A stretch of 44,752 nucleotides of DNA from a virus (IMGVR_UViG_2671180296_000008:1-44752), one strand, 5' to 3'. Numbered from the stretch's first letter, positions 1 to 43,075 are shown. Numbers and translations are program-made. The notes: a model not told the origin generated them from the sequence alone.

Positions 1-504
1 TTATTGATAGTGTTTTATGTTCAGATAATGCCCGATGACTTTGTCATGCAGCTCCACCGATTTTGAGAACGACAGCGACTTCCGTCCCAGCCGTGCCAGG
101 TGCTGCCTCAGATTCAGGTTATGCCGCTCAATTCGCTGCGTATATCGCTTGCTGATTACGTGCAGCTTTCCCTTCAGGCGGGATTCATACAGCGGCCAGC
201 CATCCGTCATCCATATCACCACGTCAAAGGGTGACAGCAGGCTCATAAGACGCCCCAGCGTCGCCATAGTGCGTTCACCGAATACGTGCGCAACAACCGT
301 CTTCCGGAGCCTGTCATACGCGTAAAACAGCCAGCGCTGGCGCGATTTAGCCCCGACGTATCCCCACTGTTCGTCCATTTCCGCGCAGACGATGACGTCA
401 CTGCCCGGCTGTATGCGCGAGGTTACCGACTGCGGCCTGAGTTTTTTAAATGGCGGAAAATCGTGTTGAGGCCAACGCCCATAATGCGGGCGGTTGCCCG
501 GCAT
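1..504 (-). CDS. insB: IS1 transposase InsB
   Basis: 167-aa [19 protein letters not shown]... recognised as IS1 InsB. Confidence 0.9.
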
Positions 505-698
505 CCAACGCCATTCATGGCCATATCAATGATTTTCTGGTGCGTACCGGGTTGAGAAGCGGTGTAAGTGAACTGCAGTTGCCATGTTTTACGGCAGTGA
601 GAGCAGAGATAGCGCTGATGTCCGGCAGTGCTTTTGCCGTTACGCACCACCCCGTCAGTAGCTGAACAGGAGGGACAGCTGATAGAAACAGAAGCCAC
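423..698 (-). CDS. insA: IS1 InsA
   Basis: 91-aa [26 protein letters not shown]... recognised as IS1 InsA; overlaps insB as in the IS1 frameshift arrangement. Confidence 0.9.
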
Positions 699-771
699 TG
701 GAGCACCTCAAAAACACCATCATACACTAAATCAGTAAGTTGGCAGCATCACCTAATTGAGGGATAACAAC

Positions 772-1861: not shown

Positions 1862-2794
1862 ATGGACAACGACAAAATTGATCAACACAGCGACGAAATT
1901 GAAGTTGAGAGCGAAGAAAAAGAACGCGGCAAAAAAATAGAAATAGATGAAGACCGACTCCCCTCCCGGGCGATGGCAATTCATGAACATATCCGCCAGG
2001 ATGGTGAAAAAGAGCTGGAACGCGACGCAATGGCGCTACTGTGGTCAGCCATTGCGGCGGGTCTGTCGATGGGCGCTTCACTACTGGCAAAAGGGATATT
2101 TCATGTCGAACTGGAAGGCGTGCCGGGCAGTTTCTTGCTGGAGAATCTCGGTTATACCTTTGGCTTTATTATCGTCATTATGGCCCGCCAGCAATTATTT
2201 ACCGAAAACACCGTGACTGCGGTACTACCCGTCATGCAAAAACCGACAATGAGCAACGTCGGCTTACTTATGCGGTTATGGGGCGTCGTGCTGCTGGGGA
2301 ATATTCTCGGGACAGGTATTGCGGCGTGGGCATTTGAATATATGCCTATCTTTAATGAAGAAACTCGCGATGCATTTGTAAAAATCGGCATGGATGTGAT
2401 GAAGAACACCCCCAGTGAGATGTTTGCCAACGCGATCATTTCCGGCTGGCTGATCGCCACTATGGTATGGATGTTTCCTGCAGCGGGTGCGGCAAAGATT
2501 GTAGTGATTATATTAATGACCTGGCTTATCGCCCTCGGAGACACCACCCACATCGTTGTCGGTTCTGTAGAAATCCTCTATCTGGTATTTAACGGCACGC
2601 TGCACTGGAGCGATTTCATCTGGCCCTTCGCGCTGCCTACTCTGGCAGGAAACATCTGCGGCGGCACCTTTATATTCGCGTTAATGAGTCATGCACAGAT
2701 CCGTAACGACATGAGCAACAAGCGCAAAGCAGAAGCACGACAAAAAGCAGAACGTGCGGAAAACATTAAGAAAAATGATAAAAACCCGGCATAA
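1862..2794 (+). CDS. yfdC: Inner-membrane formate/nitrite-transporter-family protein YfdC
   Basis: 310-aa ORF MDNDKIDQHSDEIEVESEEK... recognised; K-12-like gene order mlaA-yfdC-argW. Confidence 0.85.
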   Translation: MDNDKIDQHSDEIEVESEEKERGKKIEIDEDRLPSRAMAIHEHIRQDGEKELERDAMALLWSAIAAGLSMGASLLAKGIFHVELEGVPGSFLLENLGYTFGFIIVIMARQQLFTENTVTAVLPVMQKPTMSNVGLLMRLWGVVLLGNILGTGIAAWAFEYMPIFNEETRDAFVKIGMDVMKNTPSEMFANAIISGWLIATMVWMFPAAGAAKIVVIILMTWLIALGDTTHIVVGSVEILYLVFNGTLHWSDFIWPFALPTLAGNICGGTFIFALMSHAQIRNDMSNKRKAEARQKAERAENIKKNDKNPA

Positions 2795-2869
2795 ATGGCG
2801 AGGGTTTAAGCAATCGAGCGGCAGTGTACTTACCCCGCTGAGCATTAGCGGGTATACTCATGCCGCATT

Positions 2870-2944
2870 GTCCTCTTAGTTAAATGGATATAACGAGCCC
2901 CTCCTAAGGGCTAATTGCAGGTTCGATTCCTGCAGGGGACACCA
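2870..2944 (+). tRNA. argW: tRNA-Arg (anticodon CCU)
   Basis: GTCCTCTTAGTTAAATGGATATAACGAGCCCCTCCTAAGGGCTAATTGCAGGTTCGATTCCTGCAGGGGACACCA; anticodon loop CTCCTAA; T-arm GGTTCGATTCC. Confidence 0.9.
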
Positions 2945-2950
2945 TTTATC
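2930..2950. repeat. attL core: 21-bp direct repeat CTGCAGGGGACACCATTTATC covering the tRNA 3' end
   Basis: Exact 21-nt identity with 43055-43075. Confidence 0.65.
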
Positions 2951-3105
2951 AGTTCGCTCCCATTCGTACCAGTCCGCAAAATTCCCTGAATATCAAGCCT
3001 TCCGCAGATTCACAGTTCGTAATGGTTCGCGTCAGATCGTTGACAGCCGCACTCCGTGACGGGTAAAAAGTGGATAAAATAATTTTACCCACCGGATTTT
3101 TACCC

Positions 3106-4263
3106 ATGCTCACCGTTAAGCAGATTGAAGCAGCAAAGCCGAAAGAAAAACCATACCGCCTTCTCGATGGTAATGGCCTGTACCTTTATGTCCCTGTATC
3201 CGGGAAAAAGGTATGGCAGCTTCGCTACAAGATTGACGGTAAGGAGAAAATCCTGACCGTCGGAAAATATCCGCTTATGACTTTGCAGGAGGCAAGGGAT
3301 AAAGCATGGACTGCGAGGAAAGACATCTCGGTTGGCATCGATCCGGTAAAAGCGAAAAAGGCTTCGTCTAACAACAATTCCTTTAGTGCGATTTACAAGG
3401 AATGGTACGAGCACAAGAAGCAAGTATGGTCAGTAGGCTATGCAACTGAACTTGCCAAAATGTTTGATGACGACATTTTACCCATCATCGGCGGCCTTGA
3501 GATTCAGGATATTGAGCCGATGCAACTGCTGGAAGTAATCCGCAGATTTGAAGATCGCGGTGCAATGGAGCGAGCCAACAAGGCCCGCAGAAGATGCGGC
3601 GAGGTTTTCCGTTACGCTATTGTCACTGGTAGGGCTAAATATAACCCGGCACCTGACCTTGCAGACGCCATGAAAGGATACCGTAAGAAGAACTTCCCAT
3701 TTCTTCCTGCAGACCAGATCCCGGCATTCAACAAAGCACTGGCAACATTTTCAGGAAGTATCGTATCGCTCATTGCCACCAAGGTTTTACGCTATACAGC
3801 CCTAAGAACGAAAGAGCTTCGTTCCATGCAATGGAAGAACGTCGATTTTGAAAACAGGATTATCACCATTGACGCCAATGTGATGAAGGGACGCAAAATT
3901 CATGTGGTTCCTATGTCAGACCAGGTAGTTGAACTTCTCACTACGCTAAGCTCAATCACCAAACCAGTATCAGAGTTTGTTTTTGCCGGGCGCAACGATA
4001 AGAAGAAGCCAATCTGCGAGAACGCGGTATTGCTTGTGATTAAACAAATCGGCTATGAGGGTCTGGAAAGCGGTCACGGATTCAGGCATGAATTCAGCAC
4101 GATTATGAACGAGCACGAATGGCCTGCTGACGCTATTGAAGTGCAACTTGCACATGCCAACGGCGGATCTGTGCGCGGGATTTACAACCATGCTCAGTAT
4201 CTAGATAAGCGCAGAGAAATGATGCAGTGGTGGGCGGACTGGATTGATGAAAAGGTGGAGTGA
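3106..4263 (+). CDS. intS: Tyrosine integrase, IntS-like
   Basis: MLTVKQIEAAKPKEKPYRLLDGNGLYLYV... recognised; start taken at ATG 3106 rather than the GTG at 3070 of the ORF track. Confidence 0.8.
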   Translation: MLTVKQIEAAKPKEKPYRLLDGNGLYLYVPVSGKKVWQLRYKIDGKEKILTVGKYPLMTLQEARDKAWTARKDISVGIDPVKAKKASSNNNSFSAIYKEWYEHKKQVWSVGYATELAKMFDDDILPIIGGLEIQDIEPMQLLEVIRRFEDRGAMERANKARRRCGEVFRYAIVTGRAKYNPAPDLADAMKGYRKKNFPFLPADQIPAFNKALATFSGSIVSLIATKVLRYTALRTKELRSMQWKNVDFENRIITIDANVMKGRKIHVVPMSDQVVELLTTLSSITKPVSEFVFAGRNDKKKPICENAVLLVIKQIGYEGLESGHGFRHEFSTIMNEHEWPADAIEVQLAHANGGSVRGIYNHAQYLDKRREMMQWWADWIDEKVE

Positions 4264-4357
4264 TCCACCTTAATCACTATCGAAGAGCACAAAGCCTTGC
4301 AATCCAGTGCAAAGCTTTGTGTGTCTCAGTTTTGTTTCATCTGTAATTATGTGTTCG

Positions 4358-4660
4358 CTACGATGCAAGAATCCATACCAATAAGCATCCGATAATTGGG
4401 AAAGAAAAATCCAACAAACTTCCCACACCCCACGCGCGCGGATCAAAACCGCCCCACCACGGCATATTCATACGCTTGCCATGCCCGAACATTTCAATCC
4501 AGCGATATTCTGCCTGGATGTGTTCACGCGCAATGAAGAACGTACAACCAGCTATCGCACCGTAAGCCCAGTTTCCGGTAAAATGACCAATCAGTAGCTG
4601 CGCAGCCACAGCACAAAGTGCATGAAGTAAGGGTGTTATATCCATTTTCATCCTACCCAA
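4358..4660 (-). CDS. Hypothetical small membrane protein (conversion-module neighbour)
   Basis: 100-aa ORF with hydrophobic segments; start uncertain (MGRMKMDITPLL...); not recognised. Confidence 0.45.
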   Translation of the reverse strand: MGRMKMDITPLLHALCAVAAQLLIGHFTGNWAYGAIAGCTFFIAREHIQAEYRWIEMFGHGKRMNMPWWGGFDPRAWGVGSLLDFSFPIIGCLLVWILAS

Positions 4661-4687
4661 TAAAACGGGGCGCTCGGCCCATTAATA

Positions 4688-4867
4688 TTATTTAGACGCA
4701 AGCGCTGCCTCAATTGCAGATAACATTTGTCTTAATTCTGCGTTTTCTTCTTCCAGTGCTGTTATTCTGTCGTCTGACTCTCTGGCTACCTGAACAAGCA
4801 AGCCAGTAACACCAGAATAATCTACAGTGTAATACCGTTCACCTTCTTCACCTAAAGGATGACAAAA
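4688..4867 (-). pseudogene. 3' remnant of a gene encoding a tail-fibre C-terminal chaperone-like coiled coil (no start codon)
   Basis: Open frame ...GERYYTVDYSGVTGLLVQVARESDDRITALEEENAELRQMLSAIEAALASK*, bounded upstream by an in-frame stop; resembles the C-terminal helix of intramolecular-chaperone (S74-like) domains by recollection. Confidence 0.35.
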
Positions 4868-5116
4868 TCACATAAATAATTTAAAAATCATAGCATTAGA
4901 TTACTTAATGATTAAATAATAGACTGCAAAACGCGACAAAACACAACATATCCAGTCACTATGAATCAACTACTTAGATGGTATTAGTGACCTGTAACAG
5001 AGTATTAGCGCAAGGTGATTTTTTGTCTTCTTGCGCTAATTTTTTGTCAACGCACTGGGTTAGTTGAATTTACAACCATGCTCAGTTTGGTGATCTCTTT
5101 AGGTCGATTGTTATGG

Positions 5117-6157
5117 TTATGCTCTGCTTGATTCAGTGATTTTGGAATCCTGCATTTTAGTAATCATACCCATAATTTTATGCCTAAGCTTTTCCATTGG
5201 GTTTTCGATTAGATAAAAACTTACCGCCCCAACTAAGATTGATGCTACCATCGTTGCTATATACATATAGAAACTGATTCCTACGTACCACACACCCATT
5301 GCTAGAATCAGGAAGTGCCATAGGTATATAGAGAAGCTCCATTTACCAATGTAAGACATTAACGGTGTTGACAGAGCCCAAGCAAATACACCTTCTCCAT
5401 AGCTCATTAGCAGAACAATGAGTCCAAATATTGGCGCATAGAAAATAAATTTGTTGAGAACCCATCCATCAGTAAACCCACCAGTTAACTTCCACATAAC
5501 TTTAGGCAGTGCAATAAGCATTGATACAATAAAGAACAGGAAGGCTATATCAGACAACTCTTGACCAATTTTAAGGAAATTATCGTGATAGAGAAATGCT
5601 GCAATCATTCCGCAAGCAAACAGTGGGAAATACCACATCACCATTCCGCCATACGCACTATCCATCGCAGGGTACAATCCCTGTAGCAATACAGCCAGTG
5701 CGAAAATAAGGAATGCCGCTGCTTTTCCATTGTACACTTTTTGAATTGCGACACCAGCATACGCAAAGAATGGAAGTATGAAGTAGAATTTATACTCAAT
5801 TGGTATTGTCCAGAAATGAAGCACGGCCTCTTTCATCGTTATGATTGAGATTGCCGTATTCAAATCAAAATACCCAAAATATGAATACACGAGAACAGCT
5901 ATTGCGAACACCGGAAGGATTCTCATTGTTCTTCCAAGGAAATAACTTAAAAGAGACCGCCAGGAAAATCCGGTAGAAATAAATCTACTGGTTAGCAAAA
6001 ATGCGCTGAGAACAAAGAATATCCAAACGCCAAACTGTGAACTTCCACCAAGCATAACCTCATACTCATGAAAATATATTCCTGTAGCGTGGGCTATTAT
6101 TACAAGGAATACCGCTATTGCCCTTAGTCCATCAAGAGACTTGATTTTACCTTTCAT
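5117..6157 (-). CDS. Acyltransferase-3 family membrane protein, Oac-like O-antigen acetyltransferase (candidate lysogenic conversion gene)
   Basis: Multi-pass membrane ORF with the LDGLRAIAVFLVIIAHA motif typical of Acyl_transf_3; start placed at MKGKIKSLDGLRA (ATG 6157), the ORF track extends to 6244; AT-rich. Confidence 0.7.
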   Translation of the reverse strand: MKGKIKSLDGLRAIAVFLVIIAHATGIYFHEYEVMLGGSSQFGVWIFFVLSAFLLTSRFISTGFSWRSLLSYFLGRTMRILPVFAIAVLVYSYFGYFDLNTAISIITMKEAVLHFWTIPIEYKFYFILPFFAYAGVAIQKVYNGKAAAFLIFALAVLLQGLYPAMDSAYGGMVMWYFPLFACGMIAAFLYHDNFLKIGQELSDIAFLFFIVSMLIALPKVMWKLTGGFTDGWVLNKFIFYAPIFGLIVLLMSYGEGVFAWALSTPLMSYIGKWSFSIYLWHFLILAMGVWYVGISFYMYIATMVASILVGAVSFYLIENPMEKLRHKIMGMITKMQDSKITESSRA

Positions 6158-6240
6158 TTCTTTCCCAGATATGGAGTGAACATCTGCGAAAATGTAGCAC
6201 ATTTCAAGGTAAACAAGAAGCGCATCCATGCGCATTTTCA

Positions 6241-8160
6241 TCACCCTGCCTTGGTGTATGTCCAGTTAAATGTTGTTGTTCCCTGGCTTGTGATGGTTAC
6301 AATCCTTCCTGTCACTGTAAATGATATCAACCCTCCTGACTTAAGCGGAGTTAAAGTAAGTGTTGTTCCGTCCCACATGGCAAGCTGAAGCGAAGAGAAA
6401 TTTGTTCCACTGCTTTCTGCCCAAACGCTTATCAGGTACATCCCTTGGCTATTTGGCAGTTCAAACAACGTAGTTGCTACGTTAGCTGCAACAGCCTGAG
6501 TTCCTTTCGCTGTGTACACTGCTGGCAACTGATTACCTGCAGAGCTTCGTGATTCAACATATGAGCCTGAAGTTTGCGTCCCAGTTAATGAGCAGTCAGT
6601 AAATACTCCATTCCCTGTGCTGTAAGTTGATATTACAGGAGTCCCACCAGTCGGAGCCTTAAACCGGCATCCCTCAGCAATTATTTTTGCTGTTGAGTCT
6701 GTCAGCAATGTGTTTGGGTATCCAGAGCCAGTGTAGGTTATTGATTCGCTATCAAGGAAGCTATCGGTACTTGATTTTATGTTAACAATGCTTGTGCCTG
6801 TTGCAAAGATAAATGCTGCTGTCCCACTCCCCGTTGTTTGCATTGAGTTTCCATGCCCGGCCAATCCTGATATATGGGCAATAGTATCATTAAGTTTTAT
6901 ATACGACGCAGTAATTCCATTTGTATTTTTTATTATATTAGACTCACCATCATACCCTGTAATAGTAAGACACTTACATCCAGAAAAATATAACCCTGAG
7001 GAATCAAATGTATATTGCGACCCGTCAACTGTGATCTGGTCTCCTGCACAGTTTATTAGCTGAGGAGACAGGCAATTTACAACATACCATGCCTGTGCTG
7101 CATCCAGCACATAACATGTATCCCACTGTATTGTCGTTCCGTTCGCCTTATAGAAACCATGCGCAACTCTCCTCGCCCATACCTGGGTATACTTTGTTAG
7201 GTAATTTCCAGAGTCATCATATATGGCCCACCATGCACCATCAACCTCAACATTTTTAATGTGCATAACGCCTGGTGAAGTAGTTCCTCCATCAATTAGA
7301 ATGCCAATTTTACCATCATTGCCAGTAGGTGATGTAGGGCGTCCTCCATCGTAAAAAATATAGACATTTTCAATATTTATTGTATTAAACGCTGCGTGGT
7401 AATGGAAACAAGCTATATTTCCTATTACTGCTATGAAAGTTTCCGGCCTATTTATGTTGCTGTTTGTTTCGCCATTTATTGTGCAGTTTGAATTCATCTC
7501 TATCGTTGCATTTACGAAGTAAGTTCCAGATGTCAATAATACATTCCGCCCTGTATTAATTGCGGCCTGTATGCCTGCATAGTCAAGAGACTGAGTTAGT
7601 GATGTTACGAATGGATAAACAGCCTGCGCCGCTGATAGTGTGGAGAATTTCTCGCTGAGTGGATGCAGAGTTCCGTCAGCTGTTGCACCGAAATCCTTGG
7701 CTGAAATGAAGTTGGTATTTTTATCATGTTGAGTTAAAGCTATTGAGCCGATATATGGCTGCTTAACTGCAACTAGTGCATCTCCCATTCCATCAGCATC
7801 GCTTTCTAACTGCTGCTTAAACTGATCAGGGTCATACTTCAGCACATTAGGAAAATAGAACTGCTGTGCACCATACGCATCATATACAGCCATAGAATGG
7901 CCTTGCACAGTTACGAACTTGGCAATCTGTCCGTTATATACAGGGTAACCAGCGGCGTTAATGATGATTGGTTGCGAAACAGGAACGTGAGAGCCGTCTT
8001 CGTTCTCTACATAAACCTGAATCTGGTTTTCAGGATTTACCGGGTCAGTGTCAATTTTACCGATATAAATTTTGCCATTGGCTACGGCTTTAAAAGAACG
8101 AGCCATAGTGAAGAGTTGCGAAGGCATGCTTACCACAACATTTGCGGTGATATCTGACAT
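6241..8160 (-). CDS. Tailspike protein with P22-type N-terminal head-binding domain and a distinct receptor-binding domain
   Basis: N-terminus [59 protein letters not shown]... matches the P22 gp9 head-binding domain by recollection; the rest is divergent. Confidence 0.85.
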
Positions 8161-8281
8161 TTCATTGCTCCAGACGAATGATATGATGCAACCATGATGT
8201 GATTGCATACCGAAATGGTACTATTGAGTATTTATCCAGTAGGTTACGATGCCATTCCACCCAACTGGTGAGGCATCAAGG

Positions 8282-8548
8282 ATGTACAGCAAATACGATG
8301 AGGCGCAGTTTCACTTGAGACTTCCGCATGAACTCCACGCGAAAATTAAGCAGCGTGCGAAGATGAATAACAGATCGCTGAACTCAGAGATAATTGCAGC
8401 GATTGAAGAATCGTTGACTAAACAAAGCTCTGTATCCGTTTACATTGACGATGCAGAGCGTATGGCAGAACAACAATCTGATATGGTTAAGAAAATGGTT
8501 TTTGAAACGCTTAAGACCATGTATAGCAATAATAAAAAGGAAACATAG
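8282..8548 (+). CDS. mnt: Mnt-like ribbon-helix-helix repressor
   Basis: MYSKYDEAQFHLRLPHELHAKIKQRAKMNNRSLNSEI...VKKMVFETLK resembles P22 Mnt by recollection; divergent from the tailspike gene. Confidence 0.6.
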   Translation: MYSKYDEAQFHLRLPHELHAKIKQRAKMNNRSLNSEIIAAIEESLTKQSSVSVYIDDAERMAEQQSDMVKKMVFETLKTMYSNNKKET

Positions 8549-8618
8549 AAATCTAGTTTCCGGATAAAATGGCATTGCCTTCATGATATCCTGTGAAAAA
8601 CTAAGGAGAGTTAACCAT

Positions 8619-9104
8619 ATGAAAAAATCACTGTTAATTATCCCGCTTCTGCTGGTTGGATGCGCAAAAGTAAGTGACTATCAAGCAAGTTGCGAACAAC
8701 GCTATCAAAAGCTTAGCGATATGGCTAATTGCCTTGATGCCAGTGTGAAGAACGACTCACGCATGGCATCAGCACCAACACCTAAGCTGTATGTCCTTGC
8801 TGCAAAGATGCTCGGGCAAGGTGTCGATGAAGGCAAGATAAGTGACGCACAGGCAAGACTTGAGCTTCAGAATCTTTATGTTCAATTACAAAGCCAAGAA
8901 CAAGCCCAACAAATAGCACAAAGCCAAGCATTCCAGCAGGCTTTATTGAATTATCAGGCTGTAAACACAATGCAAGCGATCGAGCAAAAAGCGCGCCAGC
9001 CTGTTATAACTCAACCTTACCCAACACGCGTTGACACATATACAAACTGCAATTCAGGGTTTGGAAATACAGTCACATGCAACAGTAGCAGTAACATAAG
9101 ATAA
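8619..9104 (+). CDS. Lipoprotein of unknown function, Gln-rich (candidate lysogen-expressed exclusion factor)
   Basis: MKKSLLIIPLLLVGC lipobox signal peptide; AGGAG about 10 nt upstream of ATG 8619; immediately follows mnt on the same strand. Confidence 0.6.
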   Translation: MKKSLLIIPLLLVGCAKVSDYQASCEQRYQKLSDMANCLDASVKNDSRMASAPTPKLYVLAAKMLGQGVDEGKISDAQARLELQNLYVQLQSQEQAQQIAQSQAFQQALLNYQAVNTMQAIEQKARQPVITQPYPTRVDTYTNCNSGFGNTVTCNSSSNIR

Positions 9105-9194
9105 CAATCAGCAAAGGTATCGCCTATGCAGAGTGGTACGATAAACCTCGCGTTCTACATATTTGGTTTTTGCACGTTCCTGGTGTTTGAAAAG

Positions 9195-11192
9195 CTATTC
9201 TGACAACGCATCAGACTTAGCCCCCTGCGTCAGAGCGTTAATTGCCTTTTGTGCCTGCTGCATTGCTTTCTCAAAGGCTGTTGATCCGCGTGGGGTGTTT
9301 GCCATTCGGAGCATTGCATTTCTGAATGGTTCGCTCTCATAGGCGCGAGTAAGAAGTCCGTAGCTTACCGCTGCGCCAGTTGTCGCCGGGTTCATTGCCG
9401 TCCCATACCCGATAATGAACGGGATGGTTTGCTGCCCTGTTGGTGTTGTTACTGCCGCTTTTGCAGCCTGCTGCGTGGATTGCAGGTAGTTTTTCAATCC
9501 TTTCAGATAAGCAGCGTCCTGCCCCTTAAATGTGATGCCAGTCTGGTTTTGCAGGATGTTAAGTTGTCGAAGGAACTGATCAGGGGAACCACCTGATTTC
9601 TCCATCGCCTTTCCAATGATGCCATTGCGCATTTGCGCCCTGCCAACACGACCAACTGAGTTATACAGCGTCTTAATTTCCGATTTGTTCTTGCTGAATA
9701 GCATGTTGTTGACAACTTCCGGCGTCAGGTCGCCTTTCATGAGAACATTCTTCAGCCTGGTATTCTTTAGTTTCGCCGCTTCGTCAGCGTAGACGGCATT
9801 GGCCTGCTGATATTTACGGAGAGTATCGTTGCCCAGATTCTGACCAATGGCACCATTGATATCGTCGGTCATCGCCTTGTAAACACGTTGAATGGCGGCA
9901 TCGGAACGGTTTGGTAACACTGGTCGCTCCCCCTTCACGTCCATTCTGAACTGGCTGCGCAGATCGCTTAATTGCTTCAAATCCAGATTAACCGGACCAT
10001 CAGGGCCAGCATTGCGAACAAGCTCATCACGATATGACTGAAGTTTTGAAATAGTCTCGTTATCAGCAACCTTACCAAGCTTCTGCAGGTTAGATATTTC
10101 TGTATCAATCTGCTGAATTGCTCGCGCAGGCTGAATGTTTACTCCAGCCATAGCATTCTGAACCTGCTCCAGTCGATTACCGGCGGCACGACGAATTCCT
10201 GATGCTTTCGCTTTAAGGCTGTCAATAACAACTGCTGGATCATACTCACCGAATTTATCAGCAAATCTCTGCACCAACTGGCTTCTCGCTTCCTGTTGCG
10301 TTGCTCTCATTCCACTTGTGCCAGCCAGAGGGATATTTTCTGCTGTAGTCTGCGCCATTTTTCCGACGCGGGAAGTTGGTTGTAACAGGTCTGTGGTGTG
10401 CAGAGGAACTCCTTCACGCTCTGCAAATCTGATAGCCTGCTGCGCTTCTGGCGCGATAGCACCACGAACGCCACGATAAGCAGCACCTAATCCACGTCCG
10501 GCAGCGTTAATAGCACCGCCAGCAAGTACACCAACGCCTAAATCGGTGGCGAGTGCTTCCGCATCATCTTTCGCACTATTTGCAGCAAGTGATCCAACTG
10601 CGTTTTCTGCTAGAAGGCGAGTTGCCCCCTGAGCAATTCGACCAGCAAGTGTTGGTGCCTGTGTTGCCGCTCTCTCAACGCCAGCAGGAGTGAGGTAAGG
10701 CAATGCTTCAGCAAACACCCTGCCCTCTGTAGTTTGTGGAGTCAGCGCGCCTTGCTGAAGGCCAAAGTCCTGCTCTAATCCCTGCGTTGTTACTCGTGGC
10801 GCTGGTTGATATGTACCATCGCCAATGCCGAGTTTACCGCCAGCCCAAGCCGCCGCGCTTGTTACAGCATCTGCAACTGATGCAGGTATGTTTGCCACGT
10901 TCACGCCAGCCTGCACCAGTCCGCGACCAGTCTCTTTCACTGCTTCACCAAGATCAGACATAAATCCACTTTGCTGTGGTTGTTGCTGTGCTACTGGTTG
11001 CTGTGTATCCACTGGCTGCACAGATGGCAATGGATAGGCAGCATAGAAAGCTTGCTTAGCCTGCTCTGCATTTTCTCCGGCTTGCGGGGCCACGACTTCA
11101 TTGAAGTATTGCTCCTGAGCCTGCGCTTTTTGTTCTGGTGCTAACGCCTGATACTGTGGAGAGGCGATAACATCTTTCCATGCTTTAGCCAT
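9195..11192 (-). CDS. DNA-ejection (internal virion) protein, P22 gp16-like
   Basis: 665-aa Ala/Gln/Gly-rich ORF in the gp16 position after gp20. Confidence 0.7.
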   Translation of the reverse strand: MAKAWKDVIASPQYQALAPEQKAQAQEQYFNEVVAPQAGENAEQAKQAFYAAYPLPSVQPVDTQQPVAQQQPQQSGFMSDLGEAVKETGRGLVQAGVNVANIPASVADAVTSAAAWAGGKLGIGDGTYQPAPRVTTQGLEQDFGLQQGALTPQTTEGRVFAEALPYLTPAGVERAATQAPTLAGRIAQGATRLLAENAVGSLAANSAKDDAEALATDLGVGVLAGGAINAAGRGLGAAYRGVRGAIAPEAQQAIRFAEREGVPLHTTDLLQPTSRVGKMAQTTAENIPLAGTSGMRATQQEARSQLVQRFADKFGEYDPAVVIDSLKAKASGIRRAAGNRLEQVQNAMAGVNIQPARAIQQIDTEISNLQKLGKVADNETISKLQSYRDELVRNAGPDGPVNLDLKQLSDLRSQFRMDVKGERPVLPNRSDAAIQRVYKAMTDDINGAIGQNLGNDTLRKYQQANAVYADEAAKLKNTRLKNVLMKGDLTPEVVNNMLFSKNKSEIKTLYNSVGRVGRAQMRNGIIGKAMEKSGGSPDQFLRQLNILQNQTGITFKGQDAAYLKGLKNYLQSTQQAAKAAVTTPTGQQTIPFIIGYGTAMNPATTGAAVSYGLLTRAYESEPFRNAMLRMANTPRGSTAFEKAMQQAQKAINALTQGAKSDALSE

Positions 11193-12493
11193 TAATCACC
11201 CCATAGTGAAGAAAAGTTACTGCCAGTAGTAGATTGTTGCCCTGGCATATTCTGCACCGGCTCCTGATAATCAAACTGTTTTTTAACAGTGCTCAACTTG
11301 CTTTCAAGCTGATTTCTAATCTTTCCGATAGAGTCACGAAAAGCCTTTTCACTCATTTTGGGACTTAGGGCACCAACCGCATCGGATAGTTTTTTACCCT
11401 CAGCATCTGAAAGAGCGCCCATACCCTTCAGGGACTGCACCATAGGAAGGAATGTTTGAGCTTTAAAGGTGTCGAGCCTTGCTTCAAAGTTAGCCGCATC
11501 AGAACCAGGAACTGTCGGAAACGCGGAGCGAATTCCTACTGCTTTTGAAAGGCCGGGGCTTTGCTCTATCTCGTTGAGAGAATCAAGCGCGGTGCTGAAC
11601 GTATCAACTGCACCCTGAGCGGCGGCCTGCCTGTCAGCGCGTGCTATGTCAGCCTTTTGCCGAACATCTGCCTGTTTCTGTTTTAGCTCTTCAAGTTTTA
11701 ACTGATTGCTTTCTCTGGCTATCTGTCTGTCCAGAGCCTTTTCTTGTAATTCTGCTCTTTGTATTTCACGGGAAAGAGCAGCATTCTGTGCGCTGATGTT
11801 CTGTCCACGTATCTGGATGTCCTGACCTCGAGCTGTTAGAGCTTCTCCTGCCTGATTGCTGCGGATTGTCTCTGCAAGTTTTCCGCGATCAATCTCACGC
11901 CCAACGATTCTGTCTTGCGCCTGAAAATATTGTTCTGGACCAAGTGCAGCCATTCCAAGGTGATCAACAAACTCTGTGAAACCTTGTGGATTTTGCTGAT
12001 ACATTTTAGCCACATCCAGAGGGTCTACTCCGGCACGAGTAAGCTCAGATGAGTTGTTCTGCAACCATGACATCATGGCTTCTGGAGATGAAGCTGCGAG
12101 TCTGGCACTTGCTGCCAGTGTACCGACAGTGGAACGCTGGTCTTCATCGACAAATTTCATGCCGTTTCTTACAGCGTCAAACTGCTCAGGATACTGTGAT
12201 GCCAGTTTTCGCATTGCATCGCGGTCACCAGATGTATATGCATCAGCATAAGCCTGCTGAAACTCTTGCTGCCGCTTCTGCTGATCCATCTGCTTATACA
12301 TATCCATGACAGATGAAATACCCTGCAAAGCCTGCAAGCCAACGTTATTACGTCCTGAACGCTCCATCTCATTATTCTGTCGAATGTATGCAAGCGTGGC
12401 GTCTGCATCACTTGCTCTTGGAGCGTTGGAGTTCATGCCGCCTAACCCGGCAAGAAGCGCGCCTGAATTACCAGCCTGTTGCCATGTAGCCAA
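11192..12493 (-). CDS. DNA-ejection protein, P22 gp20-like
   Basis: 433-aa ORF at the conserved position; coiled-coil-rich. Confidence 0.7.
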   Translation of the reverse strand: MATWQQAGNSGALLAGLGGMNSNAPRASDADATLAYIRQNNEMERSGRNNVGLQALQGISSVMDMYKQMDQQKRQQEFQQAYADAYTSGDRDAMRKLASQYPEQFDAVRNGMKFVDEDQRSTVGTLAASARLAASSPEAMMSWLQNNSSELTRAGVDPLDVAKMYQQNPQGFTEFVDHLGMAALGPEQYFQAQDRIVGREIDRGKLAETIRSNQAGEALTARGQDIQIRGQNISAQNAALSREIQRAELQEKALDRQIARESNQLKLEELKQKQADVRQKADIARADRQAAAQGAVDTFSTALDSLNEIEQSPGLSKAVGIRSAFPTVPGSDAANFEARLDTFKAQTFLPMVQSLKGMGALSDAEGKKLSDAVGALSPKMSEKAFRDSIGKIRNQLESKLSTVKKQFDYQEPVQNMPGQQSTTGSNFSSLWGD

Positions 12494-27253: not shown

Positions 27254-27915
27254 GCGCCTTCTCCCTGTACCTGAATCAATGTGAGGTTTCCGCAGAACAC
27301 TGCGCCGGTATCGATATACATCTGGTTGGCAAACTTGAGTGGTTTCACTGCTGGCGTATGACCAAAGATGAACGTGTCCGCGCCTTTGATTTCTTTCACG
27401 ATCCCGTCTTGTGAGTTGCTGATTCGTTCGCGGTTCCAGATTGCCTGCTGATGATCAACTGGCTTTCCAAACTCGTATTCGTCACAAGGATAATCGGCGT
27501 GGCAGATGACATATTTTTTATCTTTGCTCACCAGTTCGATGATTAACGGAAGTTCATCTGCTTTATGGGCAAGAGCTTTAGCCAGAATTTCTTTGTCGTA
27601 ATCGAGATTAAAGAACCAGCCACCGCCATTAAGCAGCCAGTGATTAACGTTTCCACGCTCTGATAAGCCATCAATCATCATTTGCTCATGGTTTCCACGT
27701 ACAGCTCTGAACCAGGGGAATGTGATTAATTCCAGGCATTCGACGTTCTCTGTACCGCGATCAACCAAATCGCCCACTGAGATAAGCAGGTCTTTTTTGG
27801 TGTCGAATCCTATCGTCTCCAGTTTTTTCATCAGGTTCGTGTAGCATCCGTGCAGATCGCCAACTACCAAAATATTTCGGTATTTGCTGCCATCAATTTT
27901 TTCGTAATAGCGCAT
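27250..27915 (-). CDS. Ser/Thr protein phosphatase (lambda NinI / orf221-type)
   Basis: [29 protein letters not shown]...GNHE metallophosphatase motifs; start at ATG 27915, ORF-track extension rejected. Confidence 0.9.
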
Positions 27916-31765: not shown

Positions 31766-32709
31766 GCAATCCCCCTGTCTGCAAACTTCCCTTCCCGAAC
31801 TCCCGTTAACGAATCTTCCCTCAGCAGGTAATCAAAATCAGCTGTCCAGCCCGTGTCGTTGTCTCCGAAGTAAAACGGCTTGGCCTGATGCACAAACGCC
31901 CTGACATACGCTCTGAAACCGTCCACGTTTGGCGTTTTCAGTTGCGGGATGATTTTCTTCAGGCGGCGTTTGCGTTTCTCGTTGACCGCAACAGCGTGTG
32001 GAAGTCTGTCACCGACTTCGGTGTTGTAGGCGTTCAGGAAGGATTCGTAGTCGATTCGTTCTGCCTTGCGACGTTCAGGTTTAACCTGCCCATCGCCGCC
32101 CCCATTGGGGGGTAGGGGGGTATTATTTATATTCTTGTTAATACCTTCTTGTTCATGATGTGCGGTTGTTTGTGCGGCTTCATGTGCGCTTTCATGTGCG
32201 GCATGTACTCTGAAAGCCGAGCCATTGCTGGCTTCGTCATGTGCGGCATCATGTGCGGTTGTTTGTGCGGCTTCATGTGCGGGTGAATTGTCCATTTTTT
32301 GAGCGTATTCATGGTAATTTGTGATGGTGATCACACGACCTTTTTGCTTCTCTCCATCAATGGAGATCATCCCCTCTTTCACAAAAACCTGAAGCATCCG
32401 CTCAACCTGATCACGGCTTGCTGGCTTGCCATGTCTGTCGCATAACTGAAGACCTAAATCAGCTGCTGTCACAACCAGTTGACCGGGTTGCAGATGCCAT
32501 TCATGACCTTTGAAATTCGCTTTGTATGGCTTTCTGGCGGCATTCAGGAGAATGTTTTCCCACAGGGTGCGAAGATAAACATCTTTCGCCCATGACTGTT
32601 TCAGAATGCTCCGGTACAACGGAATGTAACCAGTTTTCTGGTTCTCCATCCTGTTGCTCCTGCGCTCGTGTGCGGCGCTGAAATCGTAGATTTTTGCTGT
32701 ATTGCTCAT
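31762..32709 (-). CDS. Replication initiation protein (lambda O-like / P22 gp18-like) containing the iteron origin
   Basis: N-terminal DNA-binding domain, internal His/Ala repeat encoded by DNA iterons, start overlapping the helicase gene. Confidence 0.75.
32155..32283. repeat. Candidate ori iterons: about 8 copies of (T/C)(C/T)ATGTGCGG including a 31-bp duplicated block
   Basis: ATGTGCGGTTGTTTGTGCGGCTTCATGTGCG at 32158-32188 and 32251-32281 plus further copies of the short motif. Confidence 0.55.
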
Positions 32710-42981: not shown

Positions 42982-43054
42982 AATAGCGGGTAAAATATTT
43001 CTCATATCTCAAAAACACCATTCCAATCAATCCCCTGCTGCCTCAAGTAGATGT

Positions 43055-43075
43055 CTGCAGGGGACACCATTTATC
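43055..43075. repeat. attR core: 21-bp direct repeat CTGCAGGGGACACCATTTATC
   Basis: Exact identity with 2930-2950 (tRNA 3' end). Confidence 0.65.

Follow-up and report, generated by a model that had tools for sequence, protein, structure and literature searches.

We analyzed a 44,752-nt stretch of viral DNA (IMGVR_UViG_2671180296_000008:1-44752; "the window", whose numbering we use throughout), with attention to the segment that runs from a tRNA-Arg gene, argW, through an integrase gene to the tailspike gene of a P22-like prophage. This segment (2870-8208) appears to be a two-part mosaic produced by one site-specific recombination event, a reading that takes in both the history and the present functions proposed below and to which we give a probability of roughly 0.7. 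The first part (block A, 8160 to 4847 on the minus strand) would be the end of the late operon of a P22-like phage with a lambda/HK022-type integration module, in the order tailspike, AT3 acyltransferase, sib/tI terminator, attP P arm, core C site and a 7-bp overlap, AGGTGAA. The second (block B, 4853 to 2870) would derive from the left end of a lambda-like siphovirus prophage that occupied argW, and comprises the last 55 codons of a tail-fibre gene, a gene for a 95-amino-acid (aa) protein, the convergent intS and an attL in tRNA-Arg. The two blocks meet within these 7 bp.

The junction and its two flanks

Homology to HK022-type attP stops, and homology to an intact tail-fibre gene starts, within AGGTGAA (4853-4847). 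At this point the window reads ...GTCATCCTTT-AGGTGAA-GAAGGTGAACGGTATTAC..., and the same left-hand sequence precedes the heptamer both in the attP of phages Gally and mEp235 (...GTCATCCTTT-AGGTGAA-TAAGTTGTATATTT...) and in the genuine attR at torT of PSJ-23 and EC190329 (...GTCATCCTTT-AGGTGAA-AAAGGTTGAGTCGC...). The intact fibre gene of phage Tritos reads ...GCGGATCGGA-AGGTGAA-GAAGGTGAACGTTATTAC.... The base directly to the left of the heptamer is T in the window, as in attP, versus A in the fibre gene, and the base directly to the right is G in the window, as in the fibre gene, versus T in attP. With an attP base on one side and a fibre base on the other, the crossover must therefore lie inside the 7 bp. 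The non-canonical sequence at the window junction follows TTTTGTCATCCTTTAGGTGAA, and the target region of the fibre gene contains GATCGGAAGGTGAAGAAGGTG.

From these sequences, together with the HK022 literature, we take AGGTGAA to be the central overlap of the HK022-type att core. The HK022 attL that we rebuilt from published primers (PMC6814406) reads GCACTTT-AGGTGAA-TAAGTTG. According to PMC7736782, the HK022 attB is 21 bp, the 7-bp overlap must be identical between partners, and the flanking Int-binding half-sites are described as tolerant, about 5 bp of each being sufficient. The fibre target, GATCGGA-AGGTGAA-GAAGGTG, can be compared with the true attB, GCACTTT-AGGTGAA-AAAGGTT; its B' half-site (GAAGGTG versus AAAGGTT) agrees at five of seven positions. 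A breakpoint placed at the overlap of an att core is the signature of integrase-mediated recombination. The junction itself appears to be an orphan, fossil attR-like (P-O-B') site rather than a functional att site, because neither a lambda/HK022-type int or xis (by tblastn) nor a P' arm was found in the window and the reciprocal attL was not found.

On the attP side, the minus-strand stretch 5046-4847, within the 4847-5116 spacer, corresponds to a lambda/HK022-type sib/tI terminator followed by the attP P arm and core. Positions 5049-4874 align with lambda 27535-27709 (85%) and also with the annotated "sib retroregulation site" of HK97. The P arm is 93% identical to the attP of the P22-like phage Gally, 87% to the annotated HK022-type attP of mEp235 and 99.9% to the attR of PSJ-23, and two arm-type Int sites, P1 at about 4991 and P2 (inverted) at about 4961, were located by motif. 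The arm is orphaned, its cognate Int being missing from the window. The sib/tI hairpin (5005-5039), followed by UUUUUU, has a folding energy of -32.7 kcal/mol (z = -5.5); RNA folding was applied here because our consensus scan for promoters and terminators is blind to this large-loop hairpin. That scan returned fewer promoter-like sites than shuffled sequences did, and an Rfam scan of 4100-6400 gave nothing real, Rfam having no sib family.

On the fibre side, the initial annotation was right that 4688-4867 is an open frame lacking a start codon, and the translation of this frame matches PHROG 4563, "tail fiber protein", over the final 54 positions of the profile (293-346 of 346; E 7e-29). Seven further tail-fibre or tail PHROGs match as well, each at its extreme C-terminus. 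Intact 346-aa fibre genes such as Tritos gp21 share 95% DNA identity with the remnant at their 3' ends, and the longer stretch 4403-4853 is likewise 95% identical to Tritos, covering the end of the 346-aa tail-fibre gene and the 97-aa gene that follows it. Full-length Tritos gp21 carries the Pfam Peptidase_S74 domain at residues 227-278 (E 4.8e-14). In the Pfam search the 59-aa remnant did not match this model (PF13884), yielding nothing beyond coiled-coil noise below threshold, because the model spans the first ~58 residues of the domain, which lie upstream of the breakpoint and are lost here; that part holds the autocleavage site and is absent from the window. RefSeq labels the same 165 nt "tail fiber domain-containing protein, incomplete" (pseudogene), and a PDB sequence search with the full-length fibre gave no match. 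We read the remnant as a genuine fibre/S74-chaperone C-terminus that now forms the B' flank of the fossil att junction. The chaperone-domain resemblance once proposed for all of 4688-4867, and borne out by the profile search, thus belongs to 4688-4853; the remaining bases, 4854-4867, are part of the attP arm and in frame by chance. We infer that the fibre remnant and the P arm are both inert at present.

Parental arrangements in Escherichia coli

In PSJ-23, a P22-like prophage beside torT, the true HK022 site, has the tailspike-acyltransferase-sib-P arm block at its right end with 99.9% identity. The block recurs, at 99.1% identity, beside ybhB/bioA, the lambda att site, in MFDS1019527, with lambda-type int/xis at the opposite end of that prophage. 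Both blocks finish in a canonical attR, and neither has the 95-aa gene or the fibre remnant. The relationship to the MFDS P22-like prophage extends further, window 4913-8511 being 99.2% identical to it and most virion genes matching too. The complementary arrangement occurs in E. coli CPww7, where a lambda-like siphovirus prophage at argW has the order J-lom-stf-hyp-fibre (346 aa)-95 aa-intS-tRNA-Arg-yfdC, uninterrupted and collinear with window 2743-4852 at 96.4%. By this comparison, both parental configurations occur in E. coli genomes. At the target, the CPww7 fibre gene reads GGAGAAGAAGGTGAAC (locus extract 7007-7050).

The junction is rare. Among 5,426 complete E. coli genomes, seven match a 201-nt probe across the junction over 80% or more of its length, and the full 2-kb module is present in five; some part of the 2-kb query matched 3,832 of the 5,426, which the palindrome at 4294-4331, described below, helps to explain. 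The carriers include backbones with differing virion genes, so the joined module would later have moved by homologous recombination. A 21-mer from the P arm and core had eight matches in IMG/VR, and the six contigs with readable downstream sequence all continue into a canonical B' or P', which makes the window junction exceptional; the same 21-mer had no matches among GTDB species representatives.

Two observations concern the relatives of the window. It is not the same phage as vB_EcoP-611R6, an identity that we considered and rejected: only 1862-8174 is contiguous (98%), and the virion genes differ. In one junction carrier, E. coli SB0258h1 (locus extract 6895-12201), a truncated intS is followed by an ash-family gene and by genes for a 1,069-aa RNA-directed DNA polymerase and an AbiEi antitoxin; another element or a defence island seems to have taken the place of the left end there.

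The history that we propose has two steps. An HK022-type Int would have recombined the incoming phage's attP with a secondary site inside the fibre gene that the argW-resident prophage carried, and a homologous crossover in the shared lambdoid early region would then have cost the composite its siphovirus virion genes, the reciprocal junction and the HK022-type int/xis. What is left would be a P22-like prophage of full size whose integration system is now IntS at argW. The arrangement of the window is precisely what a single reciprocal exchange between the first parent's attP and the second parent's fibre gene gives. The P-O-B' junction would then be a natural record of a podovirus-like lambdoid phage that used the lambda-family integrase it encoded to enter a structural gene in an already resident siphovirus prophage, and that emerged as a viable hybrid with its whole integration module swapped, from HK022-type Int at torS/torT to IntS at argW. 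This fuller account we favor with somewhat less assurance than the mosaic structure itself. The features on which it draws, and their neighbors, are listed in Table 1.

Table 1. Features of the window between argW and the tailspike gene, with strand and the evidence for each.
Feature	Position	Strand	Evidence
tRNA-Arg(CCT), argW	2870..2944	+	ARAGORN
IntS-type tyrosine integrase (CPS-53/KplE1, HK620, Sf6 type)	3070..4263	+	Pfam Arm-DNA-bind_3, Phage_int_M, Phage_integrase
95-aa three-helix membrane protein, PHROG 1443 (unknown function)	4358..4645 (100-aa alternative to 4660)	-	PHROG 1443, E 5e-53
Fibre pseudogene: last 55 codons, including stop, of a side-tail-fibre gene with C-terminal S74-type intramolecular chaperone	4688..4853	-	PHROG 4563, DNA identity, RefSeq
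7-bp crossover interval AGGTGAA	4847..4853	-	Base-by-base junction table
HK022-type attP P arm and C core site CATCCTTT	4854..5004	-	Alignments, arm-site motifs
sib/tI, hairpin then U-run, intrinsic terminator	5005..5046	+ (int-sense, as in lambda)	Alignment with lambda, HK97, mEp235, Gally, JEP4
~23-nt vestige of IntS-type integrase 3' end (antisense of ...IYNHAQ...)	5063..5085	-	Alignment, BLAST overlaps, sequence reading
AT3-only membrane acyltransferase, 346 aa from probable start M30 (ATG 6157)	5117..6157	-	Pfam PF01757, PHROG 3333, homologues
Terminator-like hairpin and T-rich tail	6220..6233	-	Consensus scan only, weak
P22-type tailspike, N-terminal head-binding domain and receptor-binding part	6241..8160 (ORF to 8208)	-	Pfam Head_binding

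The acyltransferase and the tailspike

Two minus-strand open reading frames (ORFs), of 95 or 100 aa and of 375 aa, lie between the integrase and the Head_binding tailspike, as initially annotated, and the longer does encode an Acyl_transf_3 protein (PF01757, residues 35-340; E 1.1e-23, 84.3 bits against a cutoff of 31). It has no further domain and no fused SGNH, and it also matches PHROG 3333, "O-acetyltransferase" (E 1e-37). The 375-aa ORF occupies 5117-6244, with alternative annotated starts at 6241 or 6244, and translation probably begins at M30, where all homologues (336-356 aa) begin. RefSeq and GenBank give proteins of 370-374 aa that overlap the tailspike stop codon, and their start is probably over-extended. 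The terminator-like hairpin in Table 1 lies directly past that stop codon and upstream of the likely acyltransferase start.

The R/K-X10-H motif in the first transmembrane helix (TMH1) and the RXXR motif are essential in OafA, OafB and Oac (PMC7448272). Both are present here, as R41-X10-H52 and R105-T-M-R108, and R41, H52, FFVLS and R105/R108 are invariant in eight homologues. The FFXISG motif of TMH2 reads FFVLSA, with an alanine, kept across the subfamily, in place of the glycine; this glycine is critical in Oac (G53), and in OafA the corresponding G46A change is tolerated (PMC7448272). The gene is predicted to encode an intact AT3-only enzyme, and at 39.1% GC, against 47.3% for the window, it is AT-rich.

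The tailspike matches Head_binding (PF09008) over profile positions 1-113 of 113 (E 2.1e-67). Its PDB matches, to Sf6 gp14 and P22 gp9 at their N-termini, reach no further than the first ~120-170 residues, and the PDB holds no close solved relative of the receptor-binding part. A prophage of Enterobacter asburiae (CP077411, locus extract 3719-7041) encodes an 88%-identical acyltransferase directly downstream of a 732-aa protein that is 74% identical to tailspike residues 117-639 and has a different N-terminus. Homologues of the acyltransferase at 44% identity also lie directly downstream of head-binding tailspikes, ones with unrelated receptor-binding parts. The association with the adjacent tailspike that the initial annotation suggested is thus strengthened: the acyltransferase co-varies with the receptor-binding domain and not with the phage backbone, across phage types and genera, which supports a functional link between the two. 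The receptor-binding domain and the AT3 gene (window 5117-7860) may together form a portable cassette.

Such an enzyme would acylate the surface glycan, most likely the O-antigen, that the co-inherited tailspike domain recognizes, changing the serotype and blocking superinfection. The evidence tying it to the O-antigen is positional, namely its co-inheritance with the tailspike receptor-binding domain, and we consider it a well-motivated candidate for a lysogenic-conversion enzyme that acylates the tailspike's glycan receptor. As an alternative, the enzyme might modify another envelope glycan (enterobacterial common antigen, colanic acid/capsule or peptidoglycan) or be an inactive passenger. 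AT3 proteins have many substrates (PMC9558356), the nearest characterized phage enzymes are just 22-25% identical, NCBIfam has no equivalog for this protein, and its FFXISG glycine is an alanine. However, its place directly downstream of tailspike genes is conserved along with the co-variation just described, the essential R-X10-H and RXXR residues are kept, and OafA tolerates G46A (PMC7448272). We regard this alternative as unlikely, if the least unlikely of those considered here.

Weighing an integrase-mediated origin

Several points weigh against the history proposed above. The B half-site of the fibre target matches attB poorly, at two of seven positions (GATCGGA versus GCACTTT). The CPww7 fibre gene lacks the first AGGTGAA present in Tritos-type fibres, and therefore no single sequenced genome joins the exact target with the argW layout; the pseudo-att site appears to be polymorphic between fibre alleles. 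The reciprocal junction (fibre 5' part-AGGTGAA-P' arm-int) gave no join-spanning match to a chimeric 190-nt query in the 5,426 complete E. coli genomes and no match to a 27-mer in JGI metagenomes, so integration is deduced from one junction only, which is the main gap in the argument. As to present functions, the promoter scan revealed no convincing promoter for the acyltransferase. In the 95-aa protein, codon 43 (4517-4519) encodes I in the window copy, versus a T that is at least 90% conserved, within the family's most conserved motif, REHTQAEYRW; this may reflect relaxed constraint or a functional variant.

A 23-mer of the hypothetical reciprocal junction had one exact match in IMG/VR (IMGVR_UViG_3300032285_001232, 8755-8777). 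The matching stretch is part of an unrelated 1,477-aa ORF and agrees with the junction on neither side of the 23 nt, and we judged it to be chance, though the expected frequency of such a match is low.

Short microhomologies are common at lambdoid mosaic joints, and the poor B half-site and the missing reciprocal product would both be accommodated if the joint had arisen by integrase-independent illegitimate recombination, through microhomology-mediated end joining or replication slippage, with the identity at AGGTGAA a coincidence. The microhomology would, however, need to coincide exactly with the 7-bp strand-exchange region, out of ~40 kb of phage DNA, and would also need to adjoin a B'-like site (5/7) in the correct orientation. 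A second AGGTGAA in the fibre gene, 9 nt away, has by inspection no B'-like flank, and it went unused. We consider a coincidence of this kind improbable, more so than the alternative roles for the acyltransferase.

Least credible is the proposal of the initial annotation, in which the acyltransferase and the membrane protein form a single AT-rich conversion cassette beside the tailspike and the fibre fragment is the scar of a homologous or illegitimate exchange of receptor-binding modules: int and the tailspike do flank both genes, the remnant does come from a fibre C-terminus, and Sf6 and HK620, which proved to have an integrase of the same IntS type, carry O-antigen genes in the same slot (oac and the wzy-like hkcF, respectively), but only the acyltransferase is AT-rich (39.1% GC versus 48.6% for the membrane-protein gene), the two genes differ in inheritance, a linkage pattern that largely refutes the cassette, the orphan sib/attP arm sits between them, and the breakpoint is the exact overlap of an HK022-type att core, an integrase signature, rather than a region of fibre/tailspike homology.

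Comparison with known systems and implications

Known prophage AT3 enzymes that acetylate the O-antigen and are encoded beside the tailspike gene include the Oac of Sf6 and, in Salmonella, BTP1 GtrC and the Oac of SPC32H/SPN1S. Like these, the protein described here is an AT3-only acyltransferase encoded in the slot between tailspike and IntS integrase of an argW P22-like phage, and it shares with the Sf6 Oac-type enzymes the R-X10-H and RXXR motifs and an AT-rich gene. Unlike them, it is only distantly related in sequence (25% identical to Sf6 Oac over 207 aa, E 2e-9, and 22-23% to the Salmonella enzymes), and its gene is co-oriented with the tailspike gene and directly downstream of it, while Sf6 oac runs on the other strand from a promoter of its own.

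The junction resembles a lambda/HK022 attR in its complete P arm, with sib/tI, P1, P2 and the C core site, in an overlap identical in both partners, and in a B'-like half-site in the right orientation. It differs in that the partner is another phage's tail-fibre gene and not torS/torT, in the loss of the cognate int/xis and the reciprocal attL, and in being part of an element now bounded by the unrelated IntS system. Secondary attachment sites of lambda are part of classical lambda genetics. For HK022, "attB"-like sites are described in PMC7736782.

Insertion by a tyrosine integrase into a late structural gene of a resident lambdoid prophage also recalls the helper-embedded phage-inducible chromosomal islands (PMC10111431). 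Those islands are excisable satellites that have an integrase clade of their own and use 14 regular sites, unlike the case here of a full phage, a lambda-family Int and an apparently accidental site, resolved into a hybrid. The remnant and the 95-aa gene are 95% identical in DNA to the pair formed by an S74 side tail fibre of the Tritos gp21 type (PHROG 4563) and the PHROG 1443 membrane protein after it, with the difference that only the last 55 fibre codons are present and the part of S74 that autocleaves and that the Pfam model covers is missing.

Every component is of a known class: an Oac-like gene, a pseudogenized fibre end, lambda-family att and secondary-site integration, and insertion into a late gene. 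What is new is the reading of the scar as the fossil attR of a phage-into-prophage integration, one that would account for how a lambdoid phage of podovirus type and another of siphovirus type came to swap integration modules. Homologous or random illegitimate recombination is the usual explanation for mosaic joints in lambdoid phages. Here the proposed mechanism, Int-mediated exchange at a secondary att site, is legible to 7 bp, with both parental forms still present in nature. If this reading is true, site-specific recombination at pseudo-att sites within prophages would be a real route to lambdoid mosaicism; in a stronger version, the widely conserved AGGTGAAGAAGGTG in S74 fibre genes may be a recurrent docking site through which incoming phages disable a competitor's fibre. 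The mobile unit of receptor-binding domain and AT3 gene, seen in three att contexts in E. coli and in the Enterobacter prophage, may be useful for predicting which prophage acyltransferases alter which receptors or serotypes.

Other features of the prophage

The 95-aa protein has no match in Pfam, NCBIfam or PADLOC, and none of its 281 homologues is named. The conserved core of the family reads AREHTQAEYRWI...GKRxNMPWWGGFDxRxW. An AlphaFold2 model (predicted local distance difference test score, pLDDT, 92) has helices at residues 4-23, 26-53 and 74-94, and a Foldseek search with it against the PDB and BFVD returned nothing with E at or below 0.001. Its GC content lies close to the window average, contrary to the initial description of both genes as AT-rich. 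The gene follows S74-type fibre genes in many lambdoid siphoviruses and is inherited with the fibre gene and intS (CPww7, Tritos), and in the P22-like phages HZ41, Gally and JEP4 its immediate upstream neighbor is a different tailspike gene. We would guess that it is a moron in its own right, conserved among prophages and perhaps acting in exclusion at the inner membrane, and it should not carry the annotation of a conversion partner.

Host DNA opens the window, with mlaA and yfdC homologues followed by tRNA-Arg. A 26-nt direct repeat at 2925-2950 and 43050-43075, spaced by 40,125 bp, brackets a 40.1-kb prophage; we take the first copy to be the attL core repeat of an argW-type, P22-like prophage and the second its attR partner. 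The IntS-type integrase is the sole integrase of the window. Its region is 96-97% identical in DNA to HK620, Sf6, CUS-3 and the siphovirus HK633, and the integrases of RefSeq relatives start ~36 nt further in than 3070.

The vestige of an IntS-type integrase gene beyond sib has longer counterparts directly next to sib in Gally, JEP4, phage 434 and EC190329. In several phages with lambda/HK022 att sites, sib runs straight into the final ~100 nt of an IntS-type integrase gene (...IYNHAQYLDKRREMMQWWADW...); beyond this come the spacer normally found downstream of intS and then the 95-aa gene. Such fusions are found in Gally (locus extract 4230-4693), JEP4 (3180-3645), EC190329 (4998-5667) and phage 434, and window 4180-4263 is related to them. 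The arrangement looks like the result of an earlier exchange of int modules that ran the other way.

A palindromic element, AAAGCTTTGCACTGGATTGCAAGGCTTTGTGCT, occupies 4294-4331, in the gap where intS and the 95-aa gene converge. A near-identical copy aligns directly to the left of sib in lambda, and the element may be a common bidirectional terminator or boundary sequence.

At the far left of the window (1-770), two minus-strand ORFs, 1-504 and 423-698, are presumably IS1 InsB and InsA, as recognized from their translations. The putative IS1 element lies upstream of mlaA and extends past the window start. In the early region, window 30361-33317 matches the replication-gene region of the MFDS prophage (cII, replication protein, helicase). 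A repeat with ~12-nt phasing (CATGTGCGG...) is present there in four copies at 32154-32281, as two pairs 81 nt apart, and these repeats look like the ori iterons of lambda-type phages.

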